Origin: Acidimicrobiales bacterium
Lineage (GTDB): Bacteria; Actinomycetota; Acidimicrobiia; Acidimicrobiales; Bin134
Assembly: GCA_965231915.1 (NCBI GenBank)
Contig: OZ246892.1
Coordinates: forward strand, 2,443,247 to 2,507,246
DNA length: 64,000 nucleotides
Direction of reading: 5' to 3'
Positions 8,014 to 19,065 of this stretch are shown here, piece after piece. The translations under genes were made by a program, and so were the position numbers. The notes under the pieces were generated by a model. The model was not told the DNA's origin. It made no database searches and saw only the letters and a list, made by a program, of their open reading frames with translations. Positions within the stretch are counted from its first letter, which is position 1. Every line of letters begins with the position of its first letter.

Positions 8014-8070
8014 CCGCTCCCCGAGTTCAGCGCCCCACGGGCTGCATCTAGAACGTGATGGCCCTGGGGA
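8005..8070. repeat. left copy of the direct repeat flanking the 8071..8861 insertion
   Basis: GTGGCCTGA plus the 44-nt TCAGCGCCCCACGGGCTGCATCTAGAACGTGATGGCCCTGGGGA (8027..8070). By hand alignment, 39 of these 44 nt are identical to 8875..8918. Confidence 0.75.
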
Positions 8071-8098
8071 GCGACTATGTCACACGCAATGGCGATGG

Positions 8099-8386
8099 TC
8101 AGGCCTGCGATCCAGCAACATGGCTGGGCTTCATAACGTGCTCCCACAGATCACTCGGCTGCCCTCTGTCTCCAGAGGCGATCCGCTCATTGATCTCCTT
8201 GTCCAACAGCGGGTGGATCTGCATCACCTCGTTGGGGGACTTCGCCTCTACTACCGCGGGGATCAACAAGATGGAACCGTCTTGGAGCGAATGACCTACG
8301 TAGTGGCTGCTCAACTGCTGGGTGATTCTTGTCAACAGCACCCGACCCCGAGCATCAGGTTGAATAAGAATTTCATTATGTTCCAT
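8099..8386 (-). CDS. small AbrB/SpoVT (MazE/VapB-like) looped-hinge-helix protein, putative antitoxin or regulator
   Basis: Internal ATG of ORF 8099..8509. MEHNEILIQPDARGRVLLTRITQQL...DGSILLIPAV resembles the SpoVT-AbrB pattern. Weak call. Confidence 0.4.
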   Translation of the reverse strand: MEHNEILIQPDARGRVLLTRITQQLSSHYVGHSLQDGSILLIPAVVEAKSPNEVMQIHPLLDKEINERIASGDRGQPSDLWEHVMKPSHVAGSQA

Positions 8387-8524
8387 GTTATTATGGTTAT
8401 CTCCTGACGCCGACTCAACCACAGCAAACGACCGAAGCAAAGACGTTATAGTGTACCGCCGTAACATTGTAACGCAATCCAGGGTCTGATGCCACGGCTC
8501 TCTCGACACAGAACTGCCAGCGAC

Positions 8525-8827
8525 ATGACACTCCGCTTCACCCCCGGGGCAGCTTCAGAACTGGGTATGGCCCACACCAGGTTCGTGGGCACCCCAGAGC
8601 AGGCCACATATGACCGGATTGTCAGAACCCTGGCCGAACTGGACATCGCCCCCGGGCTGTTTGCGCTGGTAAATGCCTCCGAGTTGCCCCGATCCAAACT
8701 CCCCGCAACTCTCAGGGCCTATCAAGTGATCCACGAGGTACAGCCAAAGGGACCGAATGCGTCCATCACATTCATTCTGAGCACTGAAGACGAGGACGTC
8801 ACCGTGTCGGCCATCGTCTGGGGTTGA
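8525..8827 (+). CDS. small RelE/ParE-like protein (tentative)
   Basis: MTLRFTPGAASEL...RIVRTLAELDIAPGL...LRAYQVIHEV...ITFILSTEDEDVTVSAIVWG follows the layout of RelE/ParE toxins. Homology is not verified. Confidence 0.35.
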   Translation: MTLRFTPGAASELGMAHTRFVGTPEQATYDRIVRTLAELDIAPGLFALVNASELPRSKLPATLRAYQVIHEVQPKGPNASITFILSTEDEDVTVSAIVWG

Positions 8828-8861
8828 GCCGGCAAGCGACAGGCGACCCCATTGGGCCGAA

Positions 8862-8918
8862 GTGGCCTGATGGCTCAGCGCCCCACAGGCTGCATGTAGA
8901 ACGTGATGCCGCTGGGGG
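8862..8918. repeat. right copy of the direct repeat; it overlaps the functional 3' end of the GrdB-like gene
   Basis: GTGGCCTGA (8862..8870), a 4-nt spacer, then TCAGCGCCCCACAGGCTGCATGTAGAACGTGATGCCGCTGGGGG (8875..8918). Confidence 0.75.
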
Positions 8919-10032
8919 CTTCTTGTTTGGTGAGGGCGTCGCGGGCCGCGGCCAGGGTCTTGCCTGCCTCAGTCTGCTCATAGAACCAGGCCTCCGCCTG
9001 CCGGGCGTCGGGGGCCGGGCCGCCGACTAACTCCAGGGCAGCCTCCTGGTAGTAGGCCCGGATGTCGTGGGCAATGGCGATGGTGTCCAGCCGGGGGCCG
9101 TACACCTCTTTCCAGTGCTCACCGGCAGCCACCCGCTCCAGGTCGGCCAGCGCCCCGGCCACACCGTCGGCGTCGATGGCCCGGCCCACCTCGGTGGCCC
9201 CCCGACGGGCCACCGCCCGGTCGTAGGCGGCCCGCAGTCCCTGGGCCTCGTCTATTGACGGTGCCAAATCAGGATCGAAGCGGGGCGGCAGCGCACAGGC
9301 CAGCGGCGTTTCTACCGCTTCCACCACTTCGGGATAGTCCACCAGTACCGGGCCCGACGGCGCGTTGAACAAGTCGAACGCCGCGGCGAGCACCCCGTGT
9401 TGGAATTGGGCGTTGTCGGGCATGCCTACTGGGCGACCCAGGGGGAACTCGCAGTACAGCACCCGGGGGACGTTCATCCGCTCAGCCACCGCCCGCATCG
9501 AGGCCAGCACCACCGTAGCGATGCCTGCTTCTTCGAGAATGTGGGCCAGCACACACACGGTGCGCGTGCACAGCGGTCAAACCGGGGTCAAGATGGCCAC
9601 GTCCACCCCATCGGCCCTCAGCTCGGCGGCCGCAGCCGGGCCGGTGTCGAGGCGCACCTCCGAAACCGTGTCGGGCTGGTTGCCGGCGAACGCCACATGG
9701 CGGGGGGCCACGCCCCCGATGGTGCCGGCGGCGGCCAATTCTTCCAACCGGTCGATGGGATACACCACGTTGTGGTCGGACACATACGCGGCACGGTCGA
9801 AATTCGAGCTCCAATGGCCCAAGATCAGCTCCCGGTCGCCCCGGTCGAGCATCCGGTAGCTGACGTCGCCCCGGCCGTCGAAACGATCCTGGTCGGCCCG
9901 GTGCAGACCCGCGCTGGTCACAATGGCAACCGTGGCCTTGGCCAGCGGCGGCGGCGAAGCCCACGGAGTGGACTCAAACTCCGGCACCGGCAAGTTCGCC
10001 ATCATGTCGCGCATCACTTGGTCACTGGACAT
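8875..10032 (-). CDS. glycine/sarcosine/betaine/D-proline reductase component-B (GrdB/PrdB, PF07355-like) family protein with in-frame TGA (9577..9579) as candidate selenocysteine
   Basis: ORFs 9577..10032 and 8875..9558 are in the same frame, separated only by a TGA. The joined sequence reads ...VDVAILTPV-U-PLCTRTVCVLAHILEEAGIATVV. The U-x-x-C-T-R context matches my recollection of the Sec site of GrdB. Confidence 0.7.
9549..9571 (-). promoter_or_regulatory. candidate SECIS-like hairpin downstream of the TGA
   Basis: An 8-bp stem (GUGCACGC / GUGUGUGC, four G-U pairs) with a 7-nt loop GCACCGU, starting 6 nt after the UGA. Confidence 0.3.
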
Positions 10033-10060
10033 GCTCTAACTCTCCCACAGCGTCGCTTCT

Positions 10061-11530
10061 TCACCCGGTGCCAGGCATGGACAATCGTGTCCGGAACTCG
10101 GCGTAGCGAGCCCGGACCTCCCGGCCGTCAACCCCAGCGGGAGGCTCGACACTCGCACCCTGGCCGAGCGCCCAGTCGACGGCCACCTCGGCGGGGCTGC
10201 GCCCAGTTGAGACCGCGGCAGCTTGGACTGCTGCCCCCAGAGCCACCGTCTCATCGTCGTCGGGCACGATGATCGCTTCGCCGTGCAGCCCCGCAGCCCT
10301 AACCCGATAGGCGGGCGATCGAGCACCGCCGCCGATGAGATGCAGCCTCCCACCGGTGCTCACCCCCGCATCCCGCAGGGCATCAAGCCCGTCGAACAGG
10401 CCGCAGAGCACGCCGTCGTGGGCGGCTAAGGCGAGCTCTTCCCTGGTGGTGTCATTGCGCAGACCCGCGAGAAGCCCGGTGGCGTTTGGCAGGTCGGGGG
10501 TGCGCTCCCCGTCGAAGTAGGGCACTAGCACCGGAGTGCTCGCGTTGTCGGCTGAGGCGAGAGCTAGATCGCCCAGCCCGGCCGAGTCGACCCCCAGCCA
10601 GCGGGCAACCGTGTCGGTGACTCGGGTGGCGTTGAGGGTGCACACCAGAGGCAGGTAGCCGCCGGATGCGTCGGCGAACCCTGCCACTGCCCCTGACGGG
10701 TCGCTGGTGGGGGTGCGGGACACGGAATAGGCAGTGCCCGATGTGCCCAGCGAGATCACCGTGTCGCCGGGCTTCAGCCCGAGGCCGAGGGCCGCACCCA
10801 TGTTGTCGCCGGTGCCGGGGCCGACCAGCGTTGAATCTGGCAACCCAAGCGCAACGGCCGCTTCGCCGGCGATTGGTCCGGCAACCTCATCAGGTCCCAA
10901 TACTTGGGGCAGCCGGGACAGCCAGCCGGCAGGATCGTCGACCACCAGCCCCAGCAAGTCAGCAGCCATCTCATTGGCGGCGGGATCGAACCAACCGGTG
11001 CCCGAAGCGTCGCCCCGGTCGGTGACGTGGGCCCCGGACAGCCGCCAAGTGAGCCAGTCGTGGGGCAGCATGATTCGGGCGATGCGGTCGGCCAGATGGG
11101 GCTCGTGCTCCAGCACCCAGGCCAGCTTGGCGATGGTGAACGACGCCAACGGCACCGAGCCGCAGCGCTGGGCCCATCCCTCCGGGCTCAAGCGGGCCAC
11201 CATGTCACGGGCTTGGGGCGCAGATGTGGTGTCGTTCCACAGCTTGGCCGGGCGCAGTACCTCACCGTCGTCGCCCACCAGCACCAGGCCGTGCTGCTGG
11301 CCGGTCACGCTGATGGCCACCACCCGGGCCCGGTCGACCTCGGTGAACTGGGCGAAGCAGGCCGCCAGTGCCTCCCACCAGGTTTGGGGATCCTGCTCGC
11401 TCACCGGCGGATCCCAGCGGGTGTGGGCATGGGGAGCGCTGGCCCGGGCCACCAACTGTCCCGAGTCGCCCACTCGCAGCTCGACTTTGGTCGACTGGGT
11501 GGACGAGTCCACCCCCGCCACCAGCACCAT
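10061..11530 (-). CDS. xylB: xylulokinase (FGGY family)
   Basis: Start [18 protein letters not shown] at the internal ATG of ORF 10061..11944. There is an ATGA overlap with the xylA stop, and FGGY motifs run throughout. Confidence 0.9.
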   Translation of the reverse strand: MVLVAGVDSSTQSTKVELRVGDSGQLVARASAPHAHTRWDPPVSEQDPQTWWEALAACFAQFTEVDRARVVAISVTGQQHGLVLVGDDGEVLRPAKLWNDTTSAPQARDMVARLSPEGWAQRCGSVPLASFTIAKLAWVLEHEPHLADRIARIMLPHDWLTWRLSGAHVTDRGDASGTGWFDPAANEMAADLLGLVVDDPAGWLSRLPQVLGPDEVAGPIAGEAAVALGLPDSTLVGPGTGDNMGAALGLGLKPGDTVISLGTSGTAYSVSRTPTSDPSGAVAGFADASGGYLPLVCTLNATRVTDTVARWLGVDSAGLGDLALASADNASTPVLVPYFDGERTPDLPNATGLLAGLRNDTTREELALAAHDGVLCGLFDGLDALRDAGVSTGGRLHLIGGGARSPAYRVRAAGLHGEAIIVPDDDETVALGAAVQAAAVSTGRSPAEVAVDWALGQGASVEPPAGVDGREVRARYAEFRTRLSMPGTG

Positions 11531-12867
11531 CAGCTCGGCGTGGTCCAGATGATGCGGTTGACCTCGTTCTCGAGGCGCTCTTGGCGACCCGACACCGGCT
11601 GCGGGCTGAGCCCGTCGGCCACTGCCTGGTCGGCCAGAGTGGCCAAGTCCACGTCGCCCTTCATGATGTCGACCCCGAGGCCCGACTCCCATTGGGCATA
11701 ACGCTGTTCCCGGGCCTGCTCGATTGTGCCATCGGCCACCATGGCCTCGGCCACCAGCAGGGAGCGGGCCAGCGTGTCGATGCCCCCGACATGGCCCCAG
11801 AACAGGTCGTCTCGGGCCATGCTCTGGCGCCGGAGCTTGGTGTCGAAGTTGAACCCTCCGGTGGAGAACCCCCCGCCCCGCACGATCTCGTACAGAGCCA
11901 GCGACAGCTCGTCCACCGAGTTGGGGAACTGGTCGGTGTCCCAACCGTTCTGGGGGTCGCCCCGGTTGGCGTCCACGCTGCCGAAGATGCCGTTGTCCAC
12001 CGCGTAGGCCACCTCATGGTGGAAGGAATGGCCTGACAAGGTGGCGTGGTTCACCTCGATGTTCACCTTGAACTCGTCCACGAGGTCGTAGCGCTCCAAG
12101 AACCCGTGGACCGAGGCGCAGTCGTAGTCGTACTGGTGCTTGGTGGGCTCTTGGGGCTTGGGCTCGAGCAGCAGTGTGCCCGAAAAGCCGATCTTGTGCT
12201 TGTGCTCGGCTACCAGGGTCAAAAAGCGAGCGAGCTGGTCGGCCTCTTGGCGCAGGCGGGTGTTGAGCAGCGTCTCGTAGCCTTCACGCCCGCCCCACAG
12301 CACGTAGTTGGCCCCGTTGAGGCGGTGGGTGGCCTCAAGCATGTGGCGCACCTGGGCTGCGGCATGGGAGAACACCTCAGGATCGGGGTTGGTGGCCGCC
12401 CCGGCGGCGTAGCGAGGATGGCTGAACAGGTTGGCGGTGCCCCACAGCAGCCGCACCCCGGTGGCCTCCATCTTGGTGGCGGCCCGCTCCACCATGGCAT
12501 CGAGGTTGGCCCGGCTCTCGGCCAGATCAGCGCCCTCGGGGGCCATGTCCACGTCGTGGAAGCAGAAGAACGGCGTGCCCAGCTTCTCGAAGAACTCGAA
12601 GGCGGCGTCCTGCTTGGCTCGAGCGGCGGCCATCGGGTCCTGCCCCGGCGCCAGCCAGGGTCGGTCGAACGTGCCATGCCCGAATATGTCGCTGCCCGGC
12701 CAGTTGAAGCTGTGCCAATAGCACACAGCAATTCTGAGATGGTCCTCCATCCGCCGCCCCAACACCTGCCGGTCGGGGTTGTAAACCCGATAGGCCAGCT
12801 GGCCAAGTCCGGCGCTACCCCCGGCATGGGCCACCGGTTCGGGAACGGTGTCAAAGAAGTCAGTCAT
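11530..12867 (-). CDS. xylA: xylose isomerase
   Basis: 445 aa. FCFHDVD, WGGREGY and [17 protein letters not shown] are hallmark XylA blocks. Confidence 0.95.
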
Positions 12868-17139: not shown

Positions 17140-19065
17140 GTGTACATGGCGAGGCGGGAACGTTTGACCGTGCCGATGGTGCGGGACAACGGAAGCCTGC
17201 GGGAAGCGACGTGGGACGAGGCCCTGTCGCGAGCCGCGACTGGATTCAACCAGGTGCTCTCCGAGCATGGGCCGCAGGCGTTCGGGATGTTCAGCTGCTC
17301 AAAGGCCACCAACGAGATGAACTACATCGCCCAGAAGTTCATTCGCACGGTGGTGGGCTCCAACAACATCGACTCCTGCAACCGAACTTGACACGCTCCT
17401 TCGGTCGTCGGTCTGGCGACAGTGTTCGGAGCGGGAGGGGGCACTAGCTCCTACCAGGAGATCGAGGAAACCGACGTAATCCTTCTGTGGGGATCCAACG
17501 CCCGCGAGGCCCATCCCATCTTCTTCCACCACCTGCTCAAGGGCCTCGACAACGGCGCCCGCATGTACTGCGTCGACCCCCGCTATACCTCCTCGGCCCG
17601 CTTCGCCGATGTATGGGTGGGCATCGACGTGGGCACCGACATCGCCCTGGCCAACGGTATCGGCCGCGAGATCATTAGGGCTGGCCTGGCCAATCAGGAA
17701 TTCATCGCTCACTCCACCCAGGGTTTTGAGGCCTACACCGCCTCGGTGGAGCCGTTCACTCCCGATGCGGTAGCTGCCATTTGCGGTATTCCCCCCGAGG
17801 CCGTGGTGGAGATGGCCCACGCCTACGCCACTGCCGACAAAGCCCAGATCCTGTGGACCCTGGGCATAACCGAACACCACAACGCGGTCGACAACGTCTT
17901 GTCGCTGTGCAACCTGGCCCTGCTTACCGGCCATGTGGGGCGGTGGGGATCGGGCCTAGTGCCTCTGCGGGGGCAGAACAATGTGCAGGGCGGGGGCGAC
18001 ATGGGGGCCATTCCCAACAAGTTCCCCGGCTTTGCCAGCGTGGATGATCCTGACCACCAAGCCCGGTTCGAGGCTGCCTACGGCCGGTCGCTCAACCCGG
18101 TGCCAGGCTGGCATCTCACGCTGATGTTCGAGGCCATGGAGCAGGGCGACCTGCGGGCGCTGTATGTGATCGGCGAGAACCCGGCCGATTCCGAGGCCGA
18201 TGTGATCCACGCCCGGGCCCAAATGGAAAGCCTCGACATTCTGGTGGTGCAGGACATTTTGATGACCCGCACCGCGGAGATGGCCGACGTGGTTCTGCCC
18301 GCCTCGGTGGCCTGGGCGGAAAGCAACGGCACCGTCACCTCAAGCGAACGCCGGGTGCAGCGGGTGCGCCCAGCGGTGTCGCCCCCCGGCCAAGCCCGCC
18401 ACGACATTGACATCTTGTGCGACATGGCCGAGGCCATGGGTGACGAACTCGGCCCGCGGGATCCGGAGGCCGCCTGGGACGAGCTGCGCTCTTTGTCGTC
18501 GATGCACGGGGGCATGGCCTGGGAGCGCCTGGAGGCTGCTGGCGGACTGCAATGGCCGTGCCCCGACGAGGATCACCCTGGCAGCCCGTTGCTCCACGGC
18601 TGGCTGTGGGCTGATGATTTGGAAGGCCACGACCCGGCCCCCTTCTCGGTGCTTGAGCACGAGGGACCGACCGAGGAGTTGAGCGAGGAGTTCCCCCTGC
18701 GGCTCACCACGGGACGGGCTCTGGACTCCTATAACACCGGTGTGCAGAGCGGGAACTATGACTCACCGCTGCGGTTTGCCGGGCTTGACCTGAATCCGGC
18801 AGATGCGGCCGCACTGGGTATCGCCGATGGCGACCGGGTGAGGGTCTGCTCCCCCCGTGGTTCGGTGGAGATGAATGCCCGACTGGCGTCGAGCCTGCCC
18901 GCTGGGCTTGCTTTCACCACCCTGCACCAACCCGAGCTGATCGATGTCAACGTGCTCACCAACCCCGACTGGGACCCCAAATCTGGCACCGCCGAGTTCA
19001 AGGCGGCCGCCGTGAGGGTTGAGCTGGTCGAAGCCCCCGAGACTGCGGGGGCCACCGTTGGCTGA
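17140..19065 (+). CDS. fdhA: formate dehydrogenase alpha subunit, molybdopterin part only, with TGA-selenocysteine at 17389..17391
   Basis: ORFs 17140..17391 and 17422..19065 are in frame. The junction ...NNIDSCNRT-U-HAPSVVGLATVFGAGGG matches the FdhF Sec site (CARV-U-HGPSVAGL). GGAAGGGGG lies upstream of the GTG 17140 / ATG 17146 start. MGD-binding blocks follow (GSNAREAHPIFF, ADVVLPASVAWAESNGTVTSSERR). Confidence 0.85.
17404..17420 (+). promoter_or_regulatory. SECIS hairpin (fdhF-type)
   Basis: GUCGUC-GGUCU-GGCGAC: a 6-bp stem and GGUCU loop starting 13 nt after the UGA. Position and loop match the E. coli fdhF mini-SECIS (GGUUGCAGGUCUGCACC), as I recall it. Confidence 0.7.

Follow-up and report, generated by a model that had tools for sequence, protein, structure and literature searches.

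An in-frame TGA in a PrdB-like selenoprotein gene of an Acidimicrobiales bacterium

Does a lone in-frame TGA separate two neighbouring open reading frames (ORFs), or does it encode selenocysteine (Sec, U) within a single gene, and is the product then a subunit of a proline or glycine reductase? The question is raised by a stretch of 64,000 nucleotides (nt) from an Acidimicrobiales bacterium (GenBank assembly GCA_965231915.1, contig OZ246892.1, positions 2,443,247 to 2,507,246; hereafter the window), in which a preliminary description had pointed to a GrdB/PrdB-family selenoprotein candidate lying as two minus-strand ORFs, 9577..10032 and 8875..9558. The two ORFs do share a frame across one TGA; the coordinates given and the quoted sequence, AILTPV-U-PLCTRTVCVLAHILEEAGIATVV, are exact, as is the 28-nt gap reported between this gene and the upstream xylB (xylB stop at 10061-10063, ATG at 10030-10032). 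Joined, the ORFs comprise 385 codons with a single internal TGA, which is codon 152 (window 9579..9577) and stands in the context ...VDVAILTPV-U-PLCTRTVCVLAHILEEAGIATVV..., with the motif TPV-U-PLC-TRT. The selenoprotein gene is genuine; its family has been catalogued since 2005 and is therefore not new, and it is mis-annotated in public records. Judged from the sequence, the locus is very probably one gene for a cytoplasmic Sec protein of 385 residues, in which UGA152 is recoded by SelB and a selenocysteine insertion sequence (SECIS), and which is not a Prd or Grd B subunit and needs neither PrdA/GrdE nor GrdA. The features of the gene are as follows.

8875..10032, minus strand: complete selenoprotein gene of 385 codons, closed by a terminal TGA (8875-8877), with its ATG at 10030-10032.
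10040..10046, minus strand: Shine-Dalgarno-like GGGAGAG, 7 nt 5' of the ATG and within the 28-nt gap, as read from the sequence.
9577..9579, minus strand: selenocysteine codon 152, an in-frame TGA and the U of U-P-L-C, assigned from conservation and from alignment with the canonical Sec421.
9568..9570, minus strand: codon of cysteine (Cys) 155, the presumed resolving Cys of UxxC, invariant in alignments of 15 and of 50 sequences.
9549..9565, minus strand: SECIS hairpin, with 5' arm GCGCAC (9565-9560), loop CGUGU (9559-9555) and 3' arm GUGUGC (9554-9549).
9328..10005, minus strand: PrdB/GrdB-like alpha/beta domain, about residues 10-235, spanning the TGA, from PF07355, TIGR04483 and the AlphaFold2 model.
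8878..9315, minus strand: family-specific, all-helical C-terminal domain, residues 240-385, from the AlphaFold2 helices and phmmer.

Homologous loci were drawn from a read-through search of 61 related genomes and from a scan of one genome per GTDB species, which returned 80 loci, 73 of which could be scored.

Family placement and reductase partners

The Pfam model GRDB (PF07355) matches residues 10-149 with 37.8 bits (cut-off 22) at model positions 202-345 of 347, and the match stops two residues short of U152. The best NCBIfam model is that of PrdB, TIGR04483, with 134 bits (E 5.7e-39) over residues 28-219, which falls below the equivalog cut-off of 300. The selenoprotein B model TIGR01918 gives 50.8 bits, below its cut-off of 65.45, and is matched at model positions 201-399 only, the N-terminal half of the ~430-residue GrdB architecture being absent. 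As a canonical GrdB-type reference we used a protein of Entotheonella that scores 435 bits with TIGR01918 and whose gene adjoins a GrdE-type gene. BLASTP aligns it with residues 10-232 at 26% identity (E 1e-10) and places LTPV-U-PLC-TR on LVST-U-GTC-NR, so that U421 is the counterpart of U152 and C424 that of C155; both proteins also have Arg two positions beyond this Cys. The TGA thus aligns with the Sec of a canonical GrdB-type protein. The same column holds Cys in 11 of 14 aligned full-length database homologues, and Cys155 is invariant in this 15-sequence alignment.

Likeness to the two known types of B subunit is confined to part of the protein. With GrdB, GrdF and GrdH it shares the region corresponding to GrdB residues ~275-506, in which Sec lies on Sec and the Cys at +3 and the Arg at +5 are kept, but it is without the N-terminal half of GrdB and without the second Cys of UxxCxxC, and GrdA, GrdE, GrdC and GrdD genes are lacking. 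PrdB, the 26-kDa selenoprotein subunit of clostridial D-proline reductase (Kabisch et al. 1999, as related in PMC13188914), has in common with it the best curated model, the alpha/beta domain and a UxxC motif with Sec in first place. The present protein has 385 residues against ~240 for PrdB (model length 238), owing to an added helical domain of ~145 residues, and neither a PrdA pyruvoyl proprotein nor a prd operon was found in its genome; it occurs in sponge symbionts of the Acidimicrobiia and in further, mostly non-clostridial lineages, in contrast to the clostridial hosts of PrdB. The added domain (residues 240-385) has no match in Pfam or NCBIfam. When it was used alone as a phmmer query against 1.84 billion representative proteins, 189 matches were returned, all of the same family and either full-length or fragments from beyond the TGA. 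An apparent fusion of the C-terminal domain (P0142, 1019 amino acids) was rejected as a junk reading frame with no Pfam match.

The partners of the known reductases were sought by profile. In the 3.73-Mb genome from which the window comes, neither PF09338 (PrdA/GrdE) nor PF04723 (GrdA) gave a match, the PF04723 search being one without a positive control. The named control genomes first used for PF09338 were silent, so the search was run again on 30 further carriers of the long-form gene, 29 of which had no match. The one positive carrier, Entotheonella, has two matching genes (325.7 and 270.7 bits), which shows that the search works and that 29 of 30 carriers, like the genome studied here, are without a PrdA/GrdE gene. 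Both of the Entotheonella genes adjoin a canonical GrdB-type gene (TIGR01918 413-435 bits) and lie on contigs other than that of the long form.

These GrdE/GrdB-type pairs of Entotheonella (G082, contigs C70 and C264) have settings of their own, one beside choline-sulfatase and major facilitator superfamily transporter genes and the other beside a component C beta gene, and one of the GrdB-type proteins has U-G-T-G in place of U-x-x-C.

No conserved neighbour emerged from the 73 loci either: the commonest neighbour clusters occur at no more than nine loci each, and no immediate same-strand partner recurs outside the genus. These clusters, named by eye from their sequences, are short-chain dehydrogenase/reductase, CoA-transferase III, acyl-CoA synthetase, enoyl-CoA hydratase and luciferase-like oxidoreductases.

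A genuine B subunit, whether of D-proline reductase (PrdB) or of glycine/sarcosine/betaine reductase, would account for PrdB being the best NCBIfam match, for the name "D-proline reductase (dithiol) PrdB" that JGI gives to homologues, and for the listing of a marine UxxC family as proline reductase PrdB (PMC1088965, PMC2398784). We nevertheless regard this as improbable, given that both curated scores are under their cut-offs, that PF09338 and PF04723 are unmatched in the genome itself and PF09338 in nearly all other carriers, that an extra domain is present and that no conserved operon partner was found. Since 30 of the 31 carrier genomes have no PrdA/GrdE gene, "D-proline reductase PrdB" is very likely a misnomer. 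The family assignment of the preliminary description holds at the level of the superfamily, whereas what the genome contains is an orphan PrdB-like form, with no grdA, grdE or prdA found.

Decoding of the in-frame UGA

Among 30 orthologues, no part of the gene has lower synonymous-site diversity than codons 151-160 (0.13 vs a gene mean of 0.49), and five consecutive codons there are free of any synonymous variation. The family element conserved here is a 6-bp stem that begins 11 nt past the UGA and carries a 5-nt loop. Across 69 distinct sequences, 99.8% of the 414 stem cells are paired, with double (compensatory) changes at three of the six pairs. One of the pairs is never mismatched, being C-G in 37 sequences and U-A in 32, and it couples the synonymous third position of an Arg codon with the first base of a Val/Thr/Ala codon that lies ten bases from it. 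The covariation score of the stem was reached by none of 500 shuffles, and controls with the register slid pair at 5-76%. On the protein tree, the C-G/U-A pair has switched at least four times on well-supported branches and nine times on all branches, with every switch compensated. The change from Sec to Cys occurred once on the same tree, and the stem is lost in both loci of the Cys form.

The preliminary description had proposed a G-U-rich hairpin close behind the TGA. Such a hairpin exists as the minimum-free-energy fold (13 bp with one bulge, loop CCG, starting 3 nt after the UGA), but the conserved SECIS register is a different one; the fold is possible in the genus because of a GU repeat, and as a SECIS candidate it was rejected, its stability being no better than that of shuffled sequence (z = 0.63). 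The register equivalent to this hairpin in the wider family, with the 3' partners slid by -2, pairs at 76% with no compensatory changes, and the 6-bp stem was preferred to it.

A second Sec gene does lie nearby, as had been proposed. It is the gene of a formate dehydrogenase (FDH) alpha subunit ~8 kb away in the window, with an in-frame TGA in SCNRT-U-HAPSVVGL followed by 12 nt, a 6-bp stem and the loop GGUCU (17389-17450, plus strand). Several members of the PrdB-like family have GGUCN loops, some of them GGUCU like the FDH SECIS. The FDH and PrdB-like hairpins are thus alike in design, as expected if one SelB serves both. The E. coli fdhF-type SECIS is likewise a short stem-loop 11-12 nt after the UGA with GU within a 5-nt apical loop; the element described here differs from it in its loop, CGUGU, in having no evident bulged U and in a conserved stem of only 6 bp. 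A scan of the whole window at Rfam gathering scores gave no match and is uninformative for bacterial SECIS elements, given that it missed the FDH SECIS too.

The machinery for Sec insertion is present in the genome, with every component above its curated cut-off: a tRNA-Sec with anticodon TCA (67.5 bits), selA (403.9 bits) with selB (276.6 bits) directly downstream, and selD (357.6 bits). TGA also acts as an ordinary stop, both for xylB and at this gene's own end, which implies that the genome-wide code is standard. In the proposed mechanism, SelB with Sec-tRNA(Sec) would recode UGA152 under the direction of the 6-bp-stem SECIS, with its GU-containing 5-nt loop, inside the coding sequence.

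The selD gene (G000:C1:137479-138417) itself carries one in-frame TGA, in HGAG-U-AGK, so that SelD would also be a selenoprotein in this genome.

Stem-loops 3' of stop codons can stimulate readthrough, and the hairpin might in principle do this instead of binding SelB, with the UGA read by a near-cognate Trp or Cys tRNA or through local reassignment. Such readthrough without Sec is hardly plausible in a genome in which selABCD is complete, in which the codon aligns with the Sec of GrdB and the Cys of homologues, in which the spacing, stem length and GU loop of the hairpin match those of the FDH SECIS, and in which neighbouring genes terminate at TGA.

Conservation, structure and proposed chemistry

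In a collection of 5.8 billion proteins, the closest sequences, at 75-93% identity, consist without exception of a C-terminal piece of ~227 amino acids and come from Acidimicrobiia, including Candidatus Poriferisocius. They are labelled "hypothetical protein", and gene callers have cut every one at the same place; full-length relatives of ~390 amino acids emerge at ~50% identity. At the DNA level, the read-through search recovered an orthologue with one TGA in 30 same-genus genomes (76-95% identity, same length) and in six genomes from other families of the order (47-61%). The TGA occupies the identical codon of the identical motif in all 30 same-genus loci. In pairwise comparisons with the window copy, dN/dS (the ratio of nonsynonymous to synonymous substitution rates) ranges from 0.03 to 0.21 before the TGA and from 0.06 to 0.22 after it, at dS of up to ~1; both halves are thus translated and selected. 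The 73 scored loci represent at least eight phyla, and the codon is TGA in 71 of them and TGT (Cys) in two, both from Porticoccaceae. They come from Acidimicrobiia (Sva0996 group, Poriferisocius, Ilumatobacteraceae, Microthrix), Dehalococcoidia, Gammaproteobacteria (SAR92, Porticoccaceae), Binatia, Entotheonella, Dormibacterota, Myxococcota and Acidobacteriota.

The preliminary description had named three observations that would speak against a selenoprotein: a TGA aligned to a column without Cys or Sec, a genome without Sec machinery, and relatives with an ordinary sense codon beside a truncated copy here. All three tests came out in favour of a selenoprotein, the last because the relatives keep the TGA.

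An AlphaFold2 model built from a 50-sequence alignment has a mean pLDDT (predicted local distance difference test) of 95.5 and a pTM (predicted template modelling score) of 0.93. It predicts that an alpha/beta domain extends across the TGA, from about residue 30 to residue 235, and that an all-helical domain has its helices between residues 258 and 378. In the model, a loop that joins strand 145-149 to helix 155-168 carries U152, and C155 belongs to the first turn of that helix, an arrangement typical of redox-active CxxC-type pairs. S75, D79, D86, N88, R190, Q211, E262 and W349 do not vary across the 50 aligned sequences; H73, R80, H112 and R157 are each kept in 90% or more of the rows of that alignment, and C246 reaches at least 90% in the 15-sequence alignment. 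Such conservation of polar residues speaks for a true substrate pocket and against a protein with a redox function alone.

Searches for relatives of known structure yielded chance matches only in PDB sequences (E > 0.5). The best Foldseek matches in the PDB (E 4.5e-3, template modelling score 0.29-0.33), to photocobilin B12-domain proteins, were set aside as a generic alpha/beta plus helical likeness and not as relatives, which leaves the helical C-terminal domain with no relative among solved structures.

Least credible of all is a pseudogene or a pair of genes, with products of 151 amino acids and, from a GTG at 9558, 227 amino acids: public annotation does call the 227-residue piece separately as "hypothetical protein" in many genomes, and TGA is the ordinary stop of xylB and of this gene, but the internal TGA is invariant over a dS of ~1 with purifying selection on both halves, full-length Cys homologues exist, the predicted alpha/beta domain spans the TGA, and a covarying hairpin lies 3' of it that is lost in Cys forms.

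For the protein as a single Sec-containing chain, a catalytic cycle can be proposed. Sec152 and Cys155, at the N-terminal end of a helix, would make up a U-x-x-C redox pair, with Sec152 as the nucleophile or redox centre. The substrate is probably bound between the alpha/beta and the helical domains. A selenenylsulfide between Sec152 and Cys155 would be formed in each turnover and be re-reduced by a cellular dithiol system such as thioredoxin.

Several points weigh against this account of a self-contained selenoprotein. We infer the cycle from the U-x-x-C motif together with what is known of PrdB and GrdB, and a partner unrelated to PrdA/GrdE could be encoded elsewhere. Three of the 14 database homologues have Ser, Ala or Gly at the Sec position, which means that some members may not need the redox pair, or that these sequences are erroneous calls. 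In addition, the tree on which the switches of the stem pair were counted retained the codons that encode the stem.

Marine relatives and genomic neighbourhood

Selenoproteins of this description have been counted in the ocean for many years. In the Sargasso Sea data, "Proline reductase PrdB" was the third most abundant selenoprotein family, with 42 Sec genes and one Cys homologue (Zhang, Fomenko and Gladyshev 2005, PMC1088965), and in the Global Ocean Sampling data PrdB was again among the most abundant selenoproteins, with 235 Sec and 110 Cys forms (Zhang and Gladyshev 2008, PMC2398784). In recent reviews, PrdB and GrdB appear among the UxxC selenoproteins, and GrdB is also given as UxxCxxC (PMC13188914, PMC9312934). 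The gene described here most probably belongs to the same marine family. The two have in common a pfam07355 match, a UxxC Sec motif, abundance in non-Stickland marine bacteria and an excess of Sec over Cys forms, although the survey papers give counts and a motif only. Neither the two surveys nor the recent reviews mention a missing PrdA, an extra domain or a SECIS for this group, and a text search of the literature for "PrdB-like" and "GrdB-like" returned unrelated work only.

It is a real possibility, though one we would put slightly below an even chance, that the long form is a self-contained selenoenzyme without a pyruvoyl partner, which catalyses an undescribed reductive reaction in aerobic or facultative marine and sponge-associated bacteria of many phyla. 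If so, one of the most abundant "known" selenoprotein families of the ocean has been misnamed as a proline reductase for twenty years. In the NCBI records of Candidatus Poriferisocius and other Acidimicrobiia, the N-terminal piece is lost and the remainder stands as a "hypothetical protein" of 227 amino acids. As a consequence of such split annotation, the selenoproteomes of sponge symbionts and of many marine lineages are under-counted. The SECIS is now defined for the family and could serve annotation.

Shorter PrdB-like paralogues were seen in other genomes of the order (G047, G058, G059 and G060). They match only residues ~25-235, with 32-38% identity; every one contains a single in-frame TGA, and as many as four occur in one genome. 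Orphan PrdB-like selenoproteins may thus have radiated more widely in Acidimicrobiales.

The neighbours of the gene in the window are as follows.

10061..12867, minus strand: xylA (11530-12867) and xylB (ending at 10061), the upstream neighbours on the same strand, from NCBIfam matches.
8027..8917, no strand assigned: 848-bp insertion with flanking direct repeats at 8027-8069 and 8875-8917.

NCBIfam identifies the upstream genes as xylose isomerase (674.8 bits) and XylB (422.4 bits). The xylB ORF as listed (10061-11944, minus strand, 627 amino acids, TTG start) is over-extended; its true start is placed near the xylA stop, at ~11530, given that the XylB match begins at residue 142-144 and that relatives have ~490 amino acids. 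No promoters or terminators were found in the interval between xylB and the selenoprotein gene. The preliminary description had remarked on a pairing with xylA-xylB that it could not explain. The adjacency is real, but among same-genus loci 27 of 30 have xylB upstream of the gene, and none of the 66 loci from outside the genus does, so the pairing reflects inherited synteny and not a functional link.

On the other side, a convergent Amidohydro_2 gene is found downstream in 27 of 30 same-genus loci. In the window, the 848-bp insertion separates it from the selenoprotein gene. The small ORFs inside the insertion have no Pfam match. Its 43-nt direct repeats, 91% identical at a spacing of 848, duplicate the 3' end of the gene, and the right copy (8875-8917) is the real 3' end. 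The insertion is unique to this genome (0 of 29 other same-genus loci), and in 27 of those 29 loci the amidohydrolase gene lies 8-35 nt past the stop.

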